Below, piece by piece: positions 46,513 through 52,380 of a DNA stretch of 64,000 nucleotides (the first letter of the stretch is position 1; each line of letters starts with the position of its first letter). The position numbers and the translations under genes were made by a program. The DNA comes from Deltaproteobacteria bacterium. Its GTDB lineage: Bacteria; Desulfobacterota_D; UBA1144; Nemesobacterales; UBA2774. The stretch lies in the NCBI GenBank assembly GCA_040223695.1, contig JAVKFU010000015.1, positions 106,534-170,533 on the forward strand. Direction: 5' to 3'. Below the pieces are notes generated by a model. The model saw nothing but the letters and a program-made list of their open reading frames with translations, searched no databases and had not been told where the DNA came from.

Positions 46513-47355
46513 ATGGAAAAACTTAAAGACTTCGGAAATTTTATAAAATTCGAGCACACCCTTTTTTCTCTCCCCCTTATTTTTGCCGGAGCATTTCTGG
46601 CGTGGGGCGGGCTGCCCGGCGTGAGACTCCTCGTGTTAATTATATTCGCGGGAACGGGGGCGCGTACCGCGGCGCTTGCGGTAAACAGGATTATCGACAG
46701 AAAAATAGACGCCCTCAATCCCAGGACAAAGGACAGGGAATTGCCGGCTGGAAAGATAAGCCTGTTAAATGCCTACGCCATAACCCTGGCCGGTCTTATC
46801 GTTTATTTTCTCTCCGCCTATTTGATTTGCGACTTCGTTTTATTCCTTTCCCCCATTCCACTGCTCGTATTCATTCTTTACCCTCTGATGAAGCGCTTTA
46901 CGCCGCTCTGTCATTTCGGGGTGGGTCTCGGCCTTGCGCTCGCTCCCCTTGGTGGATGGGTAGCGGTAACATGCTCGTTTAAAAGCATATTTCCCGGTAT
47001 TGTGCTGTCGGTTTTCACATTCTTCTGGGTTTCGGGATTCGACATTATTTACGCGACACTCGATGAGGAGTTCGATAAAGGTAAGGGCATCAGCTCAATA
47101 GTTTCCGCGTACGGAAGGGACACGGGTCTCTTTATTTCGGGAATTCTCCATCAGGCCGCCTTCTTTTCGATCGCGTTTTTGTATTTCTACATGTTTAAAA
47201 CCATTTTCGCGGCGGTATTCCTTGCTCTGATAGGACTACTGCTCTTCCTGGAGCATAAAAAATCGGAGGATGTAGACCTGGCGTTTTTTAAAATCAACAT
47301 ACTGGTAGGGTTCGCCGTCTTCCTTTTTGTGCTCTCTGGGCTATACTTACCCTAG
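46513..47355 (+). CDS. UbiA-family aromatic prenyltransferase (MqnP-like, 1,4-dihydroxy-6-naphthoate polyprenyltransferase candidate).
   Basis: UbiA superfamily motifs (NRIIDRKIDALNPRTKDRELPAG, second Asp-rich motif YATLDEEFD). Clustered with ubiX/ubiD-like genes and a radical SAM gene. Confidence 0.7.
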   Translation: MEKLKDFGNFIKFEHTLFSLPLIFAGAFLAWGGLPGVRLLVLIIFAGTGARTAALAVNRIIDRKIDALNPRTKDRELPAGKISLLNAYAITLAGLIVYFLSAYLICDFVLFLSPIPLLVFILYPLMKRFTPLCHFGVGLGLALAPLGGWVAVTCSFKSIFPGIVLSVFTFFWVSGFDIIYATLDEEFDKGKGISSIVSAYGRDTGLFISGILHQAAFFSIAFLYFYMFKTIFAAVFLALIGLLLFLEHKKSEDVDLAFFKINILVGFAVFLFVLSGLYLP

Positions 47356-47357
47356 TA

Positions 47358-47909
47358 ATGCGCACTATAGTGGGATTTACCGGTGCTTCGGGCGTCGCTT
47401 ACGGTGTTGATTTCCTCAGAAGATGCCCTGAAGACAAATATCTGATAGCGAGCAAATGGGGAAAAAGGGTGCTCTACGAAGAACTCGGGCTCAAGACCGA
47501 GGAGCTCCGTCCCTGGGTGAACGATATATACAGCGATTCCGACCTGGGGGCGCCGTTTTCTTCGGGCAGCAATCATTTCGATTCCCTCGTGATTATACCG
47601 TGCTCCGTCTCCACGCTTGCCAAGATAGCAAACGGCATCGCAGATACCTTGATTACCAGGATAGCCCAGGTGGCTCTCAAAGAAAGGAGGAGGCTCGTGA
47701 TCGCCCTCAGGGAAACCCCTCTCAGCTCCATAGCGCTTGAGAACGCGCTCAAGCTTTCGAGGGAAGGGGCTGTGATTATGCCGATCAGTCCTCCCCATTA
47801 CATGAACGCCGAAAGCGTTGAGGGCCTGATAGAGGGCTATGTCGACAAGGTGCTTAATATTATCGGTGTCGAAACCGGAAACGGCTGGAAGCACGAGGAG
47901 CTTGAATAG
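47358..47909 (+). CDS. UbiX-family flavin prenyltransferase (MqnL-like).
   Basis: MRTIVGFTGASGVAYGVDFL flavoprotein start and conserved PCS.TLAKIANG block. Confidence 0.8.
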   Translation: MRTIVGFTGASGVAYGVDFLRRCPEDKYLIASKWGKRVLYEELGLKTEELRPWVNDIYSDSDLGAPFSSGSNHFDSLVIIPCSVSTLAKIANGIADTLITRIAQVALKERRRLVIALRETPLSSIALENALKLSREGAVIMPISPPHYMNAESVEGLIEGYVDKVLNIIGVETGNGWKHEELE

Positions 47910-47920
47910 CAAGAATTGAG

Positions 47921-48148
47921 GTGCTAAATATGAGAGAGCTACTTTCAGAAGCATTAAAGAAAATAGAAAAATTACCGCCTGACCTCCAGGATGAAATAGC
48001 AAAGCAGATAATGGATGACATCGAAAACGAGCGCAGGTGGAATGAAGCATTGGCCAGACCGCACCCGAAAATTGATAAGCCGGCGAAAAAGGCCTTGGAA
48101 GAATCTGAAGCCGGTAAAACCAAAAAATCGGGATTCGACGAATTGTGA
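47921..48148 (+). CDS. Putative type II antitoxin (addiction-module component).
   Basis: 75-aa acidic/helical protein (LSEALKKIEKLPPDLQDEIAKQIMDDIEN) with its own RBS. Immediately followed by a RelE/ParE-like toxin ORF. Confidence 0.5.
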   Translation: MLNMRELLSEALKKIEKLPPDLQDEIAKQIMDDIENERRWNEALARPHPKIDKPAKKALEESEAGKTKKSGFDEL

Positions 48149-48385
48149 AATCGGAGTTGACAGAAGATTTCATTAGATGTTTCAGGAATCTTCCCGAGAG
48201 AGTTAAACAGACAGCGCGAAAGAATTATAAGGTATGGAAAGATAATCCATACCATCCGGGTCTTGACAATCAGAGTAGGAATCGGATAGCGGGCTATGGG
48301 TGTTTTGAAGGTTGAAGAAAATACTGTGGTGTGGTTCTGGATAGGTTCTCACAGTCAATATGATAAGTTATTAAAGTCGCTGTAA
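48147..48385 (+). pseudogene. RelE/ParE-family toxin, frameshifted at a GGG run (48295-48297).
   Basis: GTG start overlapping the antitoxin stop. N-part ..RIAGYG then stop. Removing one G restores ..RIAGYGVLKVEENTVVWFWIGSHSQYDKLLKSL, the characteristic ParE/RelE-like C-terminus. Confidence 0.55.
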
Positions 48386-48443
48386 TTCTAAAACAACTGG
48401 ACCTTCGTCTTTATTTGAATCTCGAAAAGGTAAATGATTTAAT

Positions 48444-50219
48444 ATGTCCAAAAAGCAGTTCTACGATCTTCGGGAGTACATAAATTACCTTGAAGCCATA
48501 GGCGACCTCGTGCGCGTTAAGACCGAAGTGGACCCGATACTGGAGATAACCGAGATATCCTCGCGCGTCATTAAGGAGCGGGGCCCGGCCCTTATTTTCG
48601 AGAACGTTAAGGGCGCCGCGTATCCGCTTGCGATTAACCTCTTCGGCACTGAGGAGAGAGTCGAGCTCGCTCTCGGCAGAAAGCCGAGGGAAGTCGGCGA
48701 GGAGCTGGTCGAGCTCTTTCACAAGGTAAACCCGCCGTCCCTCAAATCATTTTTTTCTGTGCTTCCGAAGGCGTACGACCTTCTGTCCATGAGGACCAAA
48801 AAAGTAAAGCACGGAATCTCGCAGCAGATAGAGGAACGCCCGAATCTCGACAAGCTGCCAGTTATAAAATGCTGGCCGCTCGACGGCGGAAGATTTATCA
48901 CACTGGGGCTGGTTCTGACTCAGGATCCCGTGACGAACAGGAGAAACCTCGGGATTTACAGGCTTCAGATATACGATGAGAAAACCACCGGGATGCACTG
49001 GCATCCACACAAGGGCGGGGCCGCTCATTACCACGAAGCCGGAAAGACTGGCAAGGACCTCGAAGCCGCCGTTGTGCTGGGCGGCGACCCCAAGATGATA
49101 TTCACCGCAATTGCGCCCCTTCCCGAAGGCATGGACGAGCTCGCATTCGCGAGCTACCTGAGGGGTAAGCCGATACCTATGGTAAAGGCGAAGAGCCTAT
49201 CGCTTACGGTTCCGGCAAACGCCGAGTTCATTATCGAGGGCGTAGTGCCCCAGAACGAGCTCAGGGAGGAAGGCCCCTTCGGCGACCATTTCGGGCATTA
49301 TTCGATGGAGGCGGATTTCCCCGTATTTCACCTTAACGAAATAACACACAGGATTAATCCGATCTACCCCGCGACCGTAGTGGGCAAGCCGCCCAAGGAA
49401 GACGTCTTTTTGGGCATGGCTGCGGGGGATATGTTCTCTCCGCTCACAAGAATTATCCACCCGGAGGTCAGGGACATGTGGGCCTATCCGGAGGCGGGAT
49501 TTCACAACCTGCTCGTCGTTAGCGTGGACGAGCGTTACCCGAAGAACGGCATCAAGGCCATGCTTGCCCTGTGGGGCACGGGACAGCTCCTCCTGACCAA
49601 GGTAATGATTACGGTTTCAAGCGACGTCAACCCCAGGGACTGGGACGCCGTTCTTACCGAAATAGGAGAGAACTTCGACCCTGACGAGGATTTTCTGATG
49701 ATTCCCTGGGCCCCGCTCGATACGCTCGATTTTACGAGCGGCAAGCTCAATGTGGGAAGCAAGATGGGTATTAACGCTGTCAGAGAACAGGGCGCAGGAA
49801 GAAAGAAGAGGCAGGTTCCGGCGACGCTCCCCGATCCGAGGGAAAAGCATAAGGAGATTATCGACTGGAGGCTCCTTAAGGGCGGAATCCTCGCAATCAA
49901 GCTCGAGCAGGACCCCAAAGGTATGATAAACAAGATATTCAAAACCCCCGGGTATGAAGATGTCCGAATCATAGCAACCGTGAGCCCCGATATAGACATT
50001 CACGACAACACGGAGCTAATATGGGGTATATTTACCAGGTTCGACCCCTATCTGGACGTTATATTCGAGCGCACGGAGCTCAGAGGCTCCGCCGTCGTGT
50101 ACGGAGGCAGGATGGGGATAGATGCAACGATGAAAAACTGGTATCCTAAGGTAATTGAAATGTCTGAAGACGTAAAGGAGACGGTAACCGAAAGATGGAA
50201 CGAATACTGGAAGACGTAG
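48444..50219 (+). CDS. UbiD-family (prenylated-FMN-dependent) decarboxylase, MqnM-like.
   Basis: UbiD blocks (IFENVKGAAYPLAINLFGTEERV, CWPLDGGRFITLG, HKGGAAHYHE). Confidence 0.8.
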   Translation: MSKKQFYDLREYINYLEAIGDLVRVKTEVDPILEITEISSRVIKERGPALIFENVKGAAYPLAINLFGTEERVELALGRKPREVGEELVELFHKVNPPSLKSFFSVLPKAYDLLSMRTKKVKHGISQQIEERPNLDKLPVIKCWPLDGGRFITLGLVLTQDPVTNRRNLGIYRLQIYDEKTTGMHWHPHKGGAAHYHEAGKTGKDLEAAVVLGGDPKMIFTAIAPLPEGMDELAFASYLRGKPIPMVKAKSLSLTVPANAEFIIEGVVPQNELREEGPFGDHFGHYSMEADFPVFHLNEITHRINPIYPATVVGKPPKEDVFLGMAAGDMFSPLTRIIHPEVRDMWAYPEAGFHNLLVVSVDERYPKNGIKAMLALWGTGQLLLTKVMITVSSDVNPRDWDAVLTEIGENFDPDEDFLMIPWAPLDTLDFTSGKLNVGSKMGINAVREQGAGRKKRQVPATLPDPREKHKEIIDWRLLKGGILAIKLEQDPKGMINKIFKTPGYEDVRIIATVSPDIDIHDNTELIWGIFTRFDPYLDVIFERTELRGSAVVYGGRMGIDATMKNWYPKVIEMSEDVKETVTERWNEYWKT

Positions 50220-51304
50220 AAAGACTCTGTTTCGATAAAGAGCTCTTCCCGATAATAGACAAGGTGGAAAAAGGGCAGCGGCTCACGTTTGAGGACGGAA
50301 TGACCGTTATGAGTACGGCCGATATAAACGCGGTCGGCATGCTGGCCGATTACGTGAAGCGCAAGAAAGACGGGGACAGGGTCTATTTCGTCGTCAACAG
50401 GCACGTCAATCCTACGAATATTTGCGCCATATCGTGCAGGTTCTGCGCCTTCGGAACTACAAAAAAGTCCGCCAATGCCTACGAGCTCTCTCACGAGCAG
50501 ATATTGTCCGTCCTCAGCGATGAGATCAGGGAAGTCCATATAGTCGGGGGACTCCATCCCGATTGGAAGTTCGAGGATTATCTGGACATCATAAAGCTGG
50601 TCAAGGACAACTTTCCCCGGACCCACGTCAAGGCCTTTACCGCCGTTGAGATTGACTGGTTTACGGAGATAAGCGGCCAGAGCCTGGAAGGGGTGCTTGA
50701 GACGCTCAGGGATGCAGGCGTGGACGCGCTCACAGGGGGAGGGGCTGAGATTCTTCATCCGGATGTTAGGAAGAAGATATGCGCCCCCAAGACCGTAGCC
50801 ACGAGGTGGGAGGAGATTCACAGGCTCGCCCACAGCATGGGCATTCCCACAAACGCAACCATACTCTACGGACATATCGAAGAGCCTTTCCACGTTGTCG
50901 ATCATTTCGAGAGACTCAGGAACGTCGAGGACGAATCCCCGGGCTTCTTCGCCTTTATTCCTGTGCTGTTCCAGCCGGAAAATACCGGGCTCAAGAAGCA
51001 GGTGAAGTTCTTCCCCGCCTCCTATGACCTTAAGGTACACGCGCTGGCCAGGCTTTATCTCGACAACTTCCCTCATATCAAGTCCTACTGGATTACGCTC
51101 GGCGAGAAGATGGCCCAGGTTGCGCTCCACTACGGATGCAGCGACGCCGACGGCACTATAATGCGGGAGAAGATAATCCACGACGCGGGCGCTCCGTCAG
51201 AGCTAGGGCACACCCGCGATTTCATGGTCAACATGATAAAGAGCGCGGGCTTCATCCCTGTAGAGAGAGACGCCCTCTACAACGAAATCAGGGTTTATAA
51301 CTAG
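50195..51304 (+). CDS. Radical SAM enzyme of the MqnC/MqnE (futalosine pathway) family.
   Basis: CxxxCxxC cluster motif (CAISCRFC) and the CofH/MqnC-like fold. Gene context with mqnP/L/M-like genes. Confidence 0.65.
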   Translation: MERILEDVERLCFDKELFPIIDKVEKGQRLTFEDGMTVMSTADINAVGMLADYVKRKKDGDRVYFVVNRHVNPTNICAISCRFCAFGTTKKSANAYELSHEQILSVLSDEIREVHIVGGLHPDWKFEDYLDIIKLVKDNFPRTHVKAFTAVEIDWFTEISGQSLEGVLETLRDAGVDALTGGGAEILHPDVRKKICAPKTVATRWEEIHRLAHSMGIPTNATILYGHIEEPFHVVDHFERLRNVEDESPGFFAFIPVLFQPENTGLKKQVKFFPASYDLKVHALARLYLDNFPHIKSYWITLGEKMAQVALHYGCSDADGTIMREKIIHDAGAPSELGHTRDFMVNMIKSAGFIPVERDALYNEIRVYN

Positions 51305-51329: not shown

Positions 51330-52380
51330 AACGTGGTTGGGGATTACCTCTTTTTCCATCGTTTCAGCCAGCGTTACTTTGTCATTACGAGCCGCAAAGC
51401 GGCTCTACAATCCATTTTAGCTAGTCGTCATCCTGAATACATTTCAGGATCTCATCCTTGCCTTTTCTTTATCATTCCTCAATGTTTTTTTATTTTTCGA
51501 CATCACAGAATTGGCGTTTAGAAAATGGTTTATTGAGACGTAAAAATCTTTTTGGGACGATTTAGAGCTAGCGAGGAATCGGACGCCCTTTCCTATTAAG
51601 CAACAATGTAATTAGTCTCGCTTCACTAAACTACAATTCTAATCGCGGTTGGATTAAAAGATTTTAGCCTTAATAAAGCATTTTTAGCCATATTCCGTGC
51701 AGTCGGTGATTTTTGTTTCTTTTCATCAAGGAAAAGAAAATTTAATGTTTTATCTTTTCCTTGTCATTCCCGAGCGCCTTTATCGGGAATCCACTTCTTT
51801 CATTTTCAGGGGGCGTCCTCATGCACGCTCACCCTGAGCCTGTCGAAGGGCGCAATCCGTTAATCCGTCATTGCGAGCCGCAAAGCGGCTCGGCAATCTC
51901 AATTGTGTCATTCTGAATTTATTTCAGAATCTCATCTTTTCAACCCCCTCATCCTGAGCGCACATGAAGTGTGCAGTCGAAAGATGCCATTTCGAGCCAT
52001 TCGATCTACTCAGCATAAACTCCGCGAAAAATCTTCCTTTGTTTTTTACTTCCTTCCCCATATAGAGGGGAACGATTTCGAGCGTGCAAGGAATCGGACG
52101 CCACTGCCTAATAGGCACTTATGCTCTTTAACTCCCGACTCAATGTTCCCTACCTCAAAGCGGGTCAGGATGGGGGTGATCATGCCTCATTCCTCCTGAG
52201 TCCAATCGAAGGGTGTCCCTTTTCCATACTCCTCAGTCAACCCTACATAGTCATTACGAACCGCAAAGCGGCGCAGCAATCTCATCTTTTTAATCCCTTC
52301 ATCCTGAGCCCGGTCGAATTCTGGTTTAAGAGCAAATCAGAAGCAAGGGATGAGGAAGTTTATACCTGTTAATTTATAGT
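51330..52380. repeat. Intergenic array of composite hairpin-repeat units (REP/MITE-like), about 1 kb.
   Basis: Repeated modules: A = GTCATT(A/G)CGAGCCGCAAAGCGGCTC..GCAATCTC (51381, 51867, 52250). B = GTCAT(C/T)CTGAA-loop-TTCAG(G/A)ATCTCATC (51426, 51904). C = CTCATCCTGAGC..GTCGAA (51822, 51946, 52170, 52300). D = AGGAATCGGACGCC..CCTAAT (51571, 52088). Stems carry compensatory substitutions. Confidence 0.8.

Follow-up and report, generated by a model that had tools for sequence, protein, structure and literature searches.

What are two small open reading frames (ORFs) doing in a menaquinone gene cluster, between a UbiX-like and a UbiD-like gene, and why has only one of them stayed intact? The question is raised by contig JAVKFU010000015.1 of a metagenome-assembled genome (MAG) of Candidatus Dadabacteria, from which we analyzed a stretch of 64,000 nt (hereafter the window). 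Region 46513-51304 of the window consists of what we count as five plus-strand genes, namely UbiA-like, UbiX-like, two small ORFs, UbiD-like and MqnE. We propose that the small ORFs are very probably an ordinary decaying toxin-antitoxin (TA) cassette, made up of a helical antitoxin and a PF24732 toxin of the RelE/ParE fold, that was inserted in the menaquinone operon and recently lost its toxin. Related loci are referred to by L numbers and homologous proteins by P numbers; the coordinates of the features in the window are collected in Table 1.

The toxin remnant and its family

Read from its GTG at 48145, the second small gene encodes MKSELTEDFIRCFRNLPERVKQTARKNYKVWKDNPYHPGL in frame 1 and then unrelated residues, the residual ORF of 56 aa running out of frame to a TGA at 48313-48315. 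The 5' part of this remnant is 87% identical to residues 1-41 of the intact toxin of L003 (tblastn), and alignments with 12 homologs and with the relative L002 place the resumption of homology in frame 2 at 48267 (IRVGIG, a stop, then RAMGVLK...). The L002 sequence, which is 92% identical, still has 35 nt (ATTTAAAAAAATCAAATCAGCTAAAAATGTCTATT) that the window lacks between 48266 and 48267. Mapped onto a model of P0001, the closest intact homolog, the block deleted from the window copy corresponds to residues 41-52, which comprise strand 43-46, where the family-invariant K43 lies, and the first part of strand 51-57. The second lesion replaces the TGG codon of W60, a residue nearly invariant across 88 family members, with TAG; the WFWIGSHSQY motif is still encoded 3' of this stop. 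The initial annotation had reported an inactivated toxin beside an antitoxin whose ORF is still open, which we confirmed, and had attributed the inactivation to a single-nucleotide indel within the GGG run (48295-48297), which is not the lesion: the 35-nt deletion and the TGG to TAG change are. The C-terminal peptide that it described, ...VVWFWIGSHSQYDKLLKSL, is encoded, in a frame that differs from that of the N-terminal part.

A full-length toxin of this family has about 90 aa with K43, R55, W60 and the motif W75-F-W-I-G-x-H81-x-x-Y84. The window copy falls short of this, and no uninterrupted reading frame covers its whole toxin domain. Because K43 and a core strand are lost with the deletion, and the TAG cuts off the two final strands together with the C-terminal helix that carries H81 and Y84, the gene is dead in this genome and can give no toxic product. 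The same sequence with both lesions was recovered in L001, a second, separately built Logan assembly (SRR26209086). A programmed frameshift or stop readthrough was also considered and was rejected, as the sequence itself no longer encodes 12 residues that include the core strand and the invariant K43.

Toxins of the family are often truncated or frameshifted (P0089, P0092, P0094, P0096, L002 and L032). Two of them, P0092 and L032:2396-2575, end at or beside the same conserved Trp codon (…GIG and …GIV, respectively), which suggests that the one-step change from TGG to a stop recurs as an inactivating change in PF24732 toxins.

When the window toxin was repaired and used as a query, 97 proteins were retrieved with E-values down to 3e-38, nearly all of 89-91 aa and mostly assigned to PF24732 (ParE_like, RelE/ParE fold). 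Identity of the remnant to PF24732 proteins of 91 aa is 76%, or 87% when only aligned columns are counted; the unrepaired 56-aa ORF and the merged ORF of the initial annotation give no PF24732 match. Since its close homologs, at 76-87% identity, do pass the gathering threshold of the family, we regard the window remnant as a member of PF24732 by descent, now degraded. An AlphaFold2 model of the intact homolog P0001 (predicted local distance difference test score, pLDDT, 92.4) has RelE, YoeB, YafQ and HigB as its top Foldseek matches in the PDB, with a probability of 1.00 and query-normalized template modeling (TM) scores of about 0.6-0.7 (0.53-0.73 over the top 50). The RelE/ParE superfamily fold, an antiparallel beta-sheet with two helices of the N-terminus packed against it, is thus predicted for the intact homolog and does not apply to the truncated window product. 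The PF24732 family profile matches Methanocaldococcus jannaschii RelE3 (3bpq_B) with E=0.002, and RelE3 was reached by the family profile only, a single-sequence PDB search with the intact toxin giving no match. These homologs, structural neighbors and profile match bear out the RelE/ParE-like assignment made at first annotation.

Across the 88 sequences, K43, R55, R61, H81 and Y84 are invariant or nearly so, a set that may fit a ribonuclease (RNase)-type member better than a gyrase-poisoning ParE. On the basis of the model, the intact toxin would most likely be a RelE/YoeB-like, translation-dependent mRNA endonuclease. The family is present on four cyanobacterial plasmids, and no toxin homolog was found in the phage collection.

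The antitoxin and the pairing of the two genes

The first small gene is an intact ORF of 72 aa. It had been annotated with 75 aa from a GTG at 47921, a start that we corrected: all antitoxin homologs shown in full begin (MRELL...) at the position matching the ATG at 47930, nearly all listed matches have 72-73 aa, and the GTG lies inside the Shine-Dalgarno-like GAGGTG. The protein is 100% identical to P0098, which is RIG61_04890 of a ‘Deltaproteobacteria bacterium’ MAG. A profile search returned 175 relatives from cyanobacteria, Chlorobium, Methylococcales and metagenomes, and none of the 120 that were listed carries a Pfam domain. The antitoxin itself gave only sub-threshold noise against Pfam and NCBIfam (DUF4125, AAA_17 and TIGR02574, E=0.076) and nothing meaningful in a PDB sequence search. 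Its AlphaFold2 model (pLDDT 84.5) has three helices, at residues 2-13, 17-42 and 46-60; Foldseek returned 0 matches for it in the PDB, and no ribbon-helix-helix, AbrB, helix-turn-helix or Phd-like element was identified in it.

The two genes have the organization of a TA pair, being small, adjacent and co-oriented with the antitoxin first. They overlap by 4 nt, the stop of the antitoxin and the GTG of the toxin sharing GTGA at 48145-48148, as had been annotated; overlaps of 4 nt are also found in L003, L004 and L088, and L090 has one of 11 nt. The pair is also kept as a unit in unrelated taxa and contexts. The window antitoxin is 44-47% identical to genes that lie directly upstream of, and overlap, PF24732 toxins in Dactylococcopsis salina and a Chlorobium MAG; the Dactylococcopsis pair sits in a TA-rich island and the Chlorobium pair between an oxidoreductase gene and hydrogenase genes. 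From the fold and the gene organization, the cassette is most likely a type II-style TA pair of the RelE/ParE superfamily, in which the antitoxin would neutralize the toxin by direct binding. The pair has no dedicated function in making menaquinone, since its homologs stand in unrelated cyanobacterial and Chlorobium contexts.

Insertion at the UbiX/UbiD junction

The host cluster has the order MqnP-UbiX-UbiD-MqnE, and the small co-oriented pair of ORFs separates its UbiX-like from its UbiD-like gene, as the initial annotation had it. The UbiX, UbiD and MqnE flanks reach their curated NCBIfam cut-offs, as expected of a late-step futalosine/menaquinone cluster. The prenyltransferase passes the general TIGR01475 model only, and its scores of 173-211 bits against the MqnP ‘exception’ models of NCBIfam are under their cut-offs. 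In the paper that coined the names, the UbiD homolog is MqnL and the UbiX homolog MqnM (PMC4746308), so the labels first given to the two genes here (mqnL for UbiX-like, mqnM for UbiD-like) were reversed.

Table 1. Features of the menaquinone cluster and of the cassette within it (window coordinates).
Feature	Position	Strand	Evidence
UbiA-family polyprenyltransferase (MqnP-like), first gene of the cluster	46513..47355	+	Pfam UbiA E=3.3e-44; NCBIfam TIGR01475 266 bits, cut-off 180.8
UbiX-family flavin prenyltransferase (MqnM per PMC4746308), upstream flank	47358..47909	+	NCBIfam TIGR00421 178.4 bits, cut-off 108.9
Shine-Dalgarno-like GAGGTG, 6 nt 5' of the antitoxin ATG, containing the GTG at 47921	47918..47923	+	read from the sequence
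Antitoxin gene, 72 aa, intact ORF, predicted all-helical; lineage-specific L51P, E53K, K60E	47930..48148	+	homolog alignment, AlphaFold2
Toxin remnant, 5' part, codons 1-40 in the original frame; GTG overlaps the antitoxin stop	48145..48266	+	homolog alignment, L002 alignment
Junction of the 35-nt deletion; 12 residues (xFKxxKxxKxxYS block) lost, frame shifted +1	48266..48267	+	DNA alignment with L002, protein alignment, secondary structure of the model
Toxin remnant, 3' part, frame 2, IRVGIG*RAMGVLKVEENTVVWFWIGSHSQYDKLLKSL, ending in TAA 48383-48385	48267..48385	+	frame-2 translation, homolog and L002 alignments
Nonsense codon TAG for TGG at the family-conserved Trp	48287..48289	+	W in 12/12 aligned homologs; TGG in L002
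AT-rich 58-nt spacer from the toxin stop to the UbiD-like start	48386..48443	+	conserved with L002; no plus-strand terminator-like site predicted
UbiD-family menaquinone-biosynthesis decarboxylase, SCO4490 type (MqnL per PMC4746308), downstream flank	48444..50219	+	NCBIfam TIGR03701 533.5 bits, cut-off 495.9
Aminofutalosine synthase MqnE, radical SAM; overlaps the 3' end of the UbiD-like gene	50195..51304	+	NCBIfam TIGR03700 448.3 bits, cut-off 434.55

Several observations agree with the earlier claim that the pair was inserted into the mqn cluster: low GC, patchy presence and a break of homology at the UbiX stop. The GC content is 0.35-0.45 in the cassette versus 0.51-0.60 in the flanks. Our survey covered 73 species-level loci of Dadabacteria in which both flanking genes are present. 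UbiX and UbiD are separated by 10 nt or less, or overlap, in 32 of the 73; a non-coding spacer of 64-162 nt separates them in 29, and the remaining 12 carry inserts of at least 298 nt. Only two species loci hold the cassette, L014 with an intact pair and L032 with both genes fragmented, and it is absent from the other 71. In a neighbor-joining tree of UbiD and MqnE the cassette-bearing loci are scattered inside one subclade, where L014 is the sister of L015, which has a 125-nt spacer. Compared with L015, homology in L014 ends exactly at the UbiX stop and returns about 10 nt 5' of the UbiD ATG, without a duplication. The search for target-site duplications or inverted repeats flanking the cassette gave short, chance-level matches only. 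We considered a transposon-like insertion and rejected it, because the whole intergenic region was replaced with no duplication. The idea that the spacers of cassette-less relatives are remnants was examined too, and no homology was seen between those of 64-162 nt and the cassette.

The toxin of L014 (L014:3659-3943) carries an in-frame 9-nt tandem duplication (EENT-ENT-IVWFW) that brings it to 94 aa and is otherwise intact; its sister L015 is without the cassette. The cassette-less L008, L009, L012, L013 and L015 share a UbiX-UbiD spacer conserved in length at about 124 nt (e.g. L015:2825-2949), and these spacers open with a short GC-rich, hairpin-forming sequence directly after the UbiX stop (e.g. 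GCCGGA...TCCGGG).

Beyond the survey, all five close antitoxin homologs whose context was looked up (P0098, P0099, P0101, P0102 and P0112) are at the same junction, within the wider synteny ArgJ-RecO-...-MgtE-UbiA-UbiX. The cassette takes different forms among these relatives. The pair is intact in L003 and in L004, with an antitoxin of 72 aa and a toxin of 91 aa, and the L002 toxin has its own, independent frameshift, a +1 insertion. At L005:6001-7189, L006:1668-2856 and L007:390-1578 the antitoxin is cut short at 66 aa, and in place of the toxin stands a protein of 304 aa that matches DUF2726 at its N-terminus (E=9.5e-7), an arrangement that looks like cassette turnover at the site. In L032, where both cassette genes have decayed, MORN_2 and SnoaL-like genes adjoin.

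Other genes have entered the same junction, and with gene-sized or large inserts in 12 of 73 species the earlier description of such an insertion as unusual was an overstatement for this lineage. A 408-aa TnpB/OrfB_IS605 with Cas12f1-like TNB, OrfB_IS605 and helix-turn-helix domains is present at L047:2736-3962 and L050:2737-3963, and the junction is 9 nt long in close relatives of these two. The junction holds an HNH endonuclease at L038:2729-3286, a PBECR3 nuclease-like protein at L045:2876-3382, a PNPOx-like protein at L037:1869-2357, unknown ORFs of 81-90 aa in L040 (3649-3921), L042 (3642-3914) and L043, and a 3-kb block of three genes (DUF899, DoxX, glyoxalase-like) at L082:936-3994. In L033-L036 the cluster is broken at the UbiX/UbiD point.

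At L035:3029-3536, a TA pair of another kind lies directly upstream of UbiD, its overlapping genes encoding an AF2212-like protein of 66 aa and a PemK/MazF toxin of 112 aa; in the L035 clade UbiA and UbiX are no longer adjacent, and a 413-aa PLD-like/OGG-like gene is found further upstream. At L010:3655-4000 the UbiX match ends at residue 168 of 183 and a 298-nt interval with G/C-rich inverted repeats (CCCCCTT...GGGGGAGGG) precedes UbiD, which may be the insertion of a small repeat element into the 3' end of UbiX.

The range of inserts raises the possibility that the UbiX/UbiD junction is a cassette slot for promoter-less accessory genes, swapped between lineages by homologous recombination through the flanks, with the orphan antitoxin providing immunity against re-invasion by intact cassettes that circulate in the population. 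Its contents would be the TA pair, the DUF2726 gene, TnpB, the HNH and PBECR3 nucleases and the small ORFs, transcribed by an operon that the cell cannot silence. We offer this idea tentatively and consider it rather unlikely as it stands.

The cassette begins 20 nt after the UbiX stop (to the antitoxin ATG) and leaves 58 nt between the toxin stop and the UbiD-like start. A crude sigma-70 consensus scan, which may not fit the phylum, found no plus-strand promoter-like or terminator-like site in or around the cassette. Because of these short distances and the lack of predicted sites, the cassette is most likely transcribed by read-through of the operon.

No RNA family was matched in the whole window by Rfam at gathering thresholds. 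About 1 kb without long ORFs lies 3' of MqnE (51364-52309) and carries dispersed repeats of 32-49 nt that fall into three families. One family comprises three copies of a hairpin-bearing unit (GTCATTACGAGCCGCAAAGCGGCTC...AATC) with no Rfam match; these repeats look like small repeat elements or miniature inverted-repeat transposable element (MITE)-like elements.

The surviving antitoxin

When was the toxin lost, and is the antitoxin still of use? Between the window and L002, synonymous divergence (dS) is 0.38 for the antitoxin, 0.37 for the toxin remnant, 0.47 for UbiX and 0.37 for UbiD; the cassette and its flanks are similarly diverged, and the cassette is therefore older than the split of the window and L002. 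The toxins of the two share no lesion. Together with the low ratio of nonsynonymous to synonymous divergence (dN/dS) of the remnant, 0.10, this indicates that the two toxins were lost in separate events, both of them recent in relation to the split. The death of the window toxin is recent, its remnant still bearing a signature of purifying selection.

An alternative to simple decay is that the orphan antitoxin is kept by selection as an anti-addiction or immunity gene, acting against intact toxin copies elsewhere in the genome or re-introduced by recombination. Its dN/dS of 0.13 against L002, compared with 0.03 in the flanks, departs from neutrality (Fisher p=3e-5) even though the toxin is dead in both lineages. 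In comparisons among L003, L004 and L014 the proportion of synonymous differences (pS) is lower in the cassette than in the UbiA, UbiX and UbiD flanks (0.14 versus 0.33, 0.36 versus 0.52 and 0.29 versus 0.48; Fisher p=7e-5, 0.002 and 4e-4), the synonymous divergence of the cassette being put at about half to one third of the flanking value. This is a hint that the cassette has been exchanged between some lineages by recombination, and the sisters L014 and L015 differ only in the cassette. Such an exchange would make re-exposure to the toxin plausible. Orphan antitoxins are abundant, are well documented beside degraded toxins and have been proposed to be anti-addiction modules (PMC7192599). However, the dead toxin has an equally low dN/dS, and since a pseudogene gives the same ratio, that of the antitoxin cannot prove ongoing selection; both values may reflect only the time spent as an intact pair, preceding a very recent loss of the toxin. 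The antitoxin of the window lineage has undergone about 5 amino-acid changes as opposed to 1-2 in L002, including Leu51>Pro at a nearly invariant Leu in a predicted helix, an excess that hints at relaxed constraint. Nor does the 64-kb window contain a second toxin copy. We judge selective maintenance of the antitoxin to be possible but on the doubtful side.

Far less probable is that the pair or the antitoxin was domesticated for the menaquinone operon, for example to regulate or couple the expression of UbiX and UbiD. In its favor, the cassette occupies the identical junction in several lineages whose housekeeping proteins are only 87-89% identical, and the antitoxin has persisted beyond the loss of the toxin in three or more lineages (the window, L002 and L005-7). 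Against this, the cassette is missing from nearly all of the surveyed species loci, close sisters included; the antitoxin itself is fragmented in L032 and truncated in L005-7; its model has no recognizable DNA-binding fold or PDB neighbor; and the homologous pair stands beside hydrogenase genes in Chlorobium and in a TA-rich island in a cyanobacterium. Conservation of the two genes in mqn operons across taxa had been named in the initial annotation as a sign of a dedicated function, and here the outcome was mixed: the pair is kept at the junction within one Dadabacteria subclade, but even there it is patchy and repeatedly decays. Its patchiness, its repeated decay and its unrelated contexts in cyanobacteria and Chlorobium point to a selfish insertion, not a dedicated menaquinone function.

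That the toxin is really intact, its lesions being assembly or consensus artefacts or minority alleles, or that the 1-nt indel at 48295-48297 is its only defect, is scarcely credible: a MAG consensus can carry errors, and L001 possibly derives from the same reads, but two types of lesion, a deletion of 35 nt and a nonsense change (G>A), lie 20 nt apart and are identical in two assemblies from different pipelines, a 35-nt deletion in non-repetitive sequence is atypical of short-read error, disrupted toxins are frequent in the family (P0092 ending at the same Trp codon), and the merged ORF, which switches frame inside the GGG run, matches neither a Pfam nor an NCBIfam family, its frame-1 stretch DNQSRNRIAGYG being unalignable to the family whereas frame 2 aligns from 48267.

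A decaying TA cassette is thus the explanation that we favor. Under it, the cassette replaced a short UbiX-UbiD intergenic spacer before the window and L002 split, its deeper origin lying either in the ancestor of the subclade or in a later spread by exchange. It would be transcribed by operon read-through; the intact toxin would cleave mRNA in the manner of RelE/YoeB, and the antitoxin would neutralize it by direct binding. After the split from L002, the 35-nt deletion with its frameshift and the TGG to TAG change killed the window toxin. The antitoxin ORF survives, either because it is too young to have decayed or as a protection against re-acquired toxin copies.

Some points weigh against this explanation or parts of it. 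The toxicity, neutralization and co-transcription of the pair are predictions only. The repaired window toxin scores 17.2 bits (E=0.005) against PF24732, below the gathering threshold of 24.4. The Pfam name of the family is ParE-like, and the choice of an RNase activity over gyrase poisoning rests on structural neighbors and conserved K/R/H/Y residues. The promoter and terminator scan was of a crude kind, possibly unsuited to the phylum. As for the lesions, L001 may share reads with the window and so is not independent evidence against a population-level polymorphism, and the frameshift of L002 is known from a single contig, where a sequencing error is possible.

Significance and comparison with known systems

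A decaying TA locus is ordinary and leaves the understanding of menaquinone synthesis and of TA biology unchanged. The locus does pair the recently defined PF24732 toxins with a widespread family of all-helical antitoxins of about 72 aa, which is without a Pfam model or a solved structure, and the annotation of both families could improve on ‘hypothetical protein’. One fixed site displays a decay series, from intact through frameshifted, deleted with a nonsense codon, and toxin replaced, to both genes decayed, and is a clean natural example for dating toxin loss versus antitoxin loss. In Dadabacteria, foreign genes repeatedly enter the tight junction of UbiX and UbiD, in the operon of an essential pathway, which is relevant to the way in which accessory genes make use of housekeeping transcription units. 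Literature searches returned nothing that connects Dadabacteria to menaquinone or futalosine, and a TA module inside a menaquinone operon was not described among the top-ranked results.

The window pair resembles other PF24732 toxins with their 72-73-aa upstream partners in that the GTG or ATG of the toxin overlaps the stop of the partner. It differs in its toxin, a pseudogene with 12 residues lost, a frameshift, a nonsense codon and a sub-threshold score even when repaired, and in its location, the menaquinone operon being specific to a Dadabacteria subclade.

The RelE/YoeB/YafQ/HigB mRNA interferases, such as 3bpq, Mycobacterium tuberculosis RelE1 (9g12) and Escherichia coli YoeB (2a6r), are alike in predicted fold, and basic and aromatic residues are conserved in PF24732 as in such RNases. 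Sequence identity to them is only 9-20%, and the catalytic role of the conserved residues is putative. Their antitoxins differ as well: the antitoxin described here is not RelB, YefM, DinJ or HigA-like, being all-helical with no neighbor in the PDB. The ParE/ParD gyrase poisons share the superfamily fold and the Pfam name, but the top 50 structural neighbors are RelE/YoeB/YafQ/HigB RNases together with the multidomain Txp40 and Cami1 and one ‘YoeB/ParE toxin’ (6n90), and the antitoxin model does not have the ribbon-helix-helix N-terminus of that system.

With respect to genomic setting, the mazEF module downstream of relA in E. coli is a TA module co-transcribed with housekeeping genes. The window cassette likewise sits within a housekeeping transcription unit, of whose transcript it is probably a part; unlike mazEF, it lies between two genes of one biosynthetic pathway, where the 20 nt upstream apparently leave no room for a promoter of its own. 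A parallel to its present state is found among orphan antitoxins and decaying chromosomal TA loci, such as those of Klebsiella pneumoniae (PMC7192599), where an open antitoxin ORF likewise stands beside a disrupted toxin and toxin losses are likewise independent and repeated among relatives. What sets the Dadabacteria locus apart from these is that the decay series can be read across lineages at one fixed site inside an operon.

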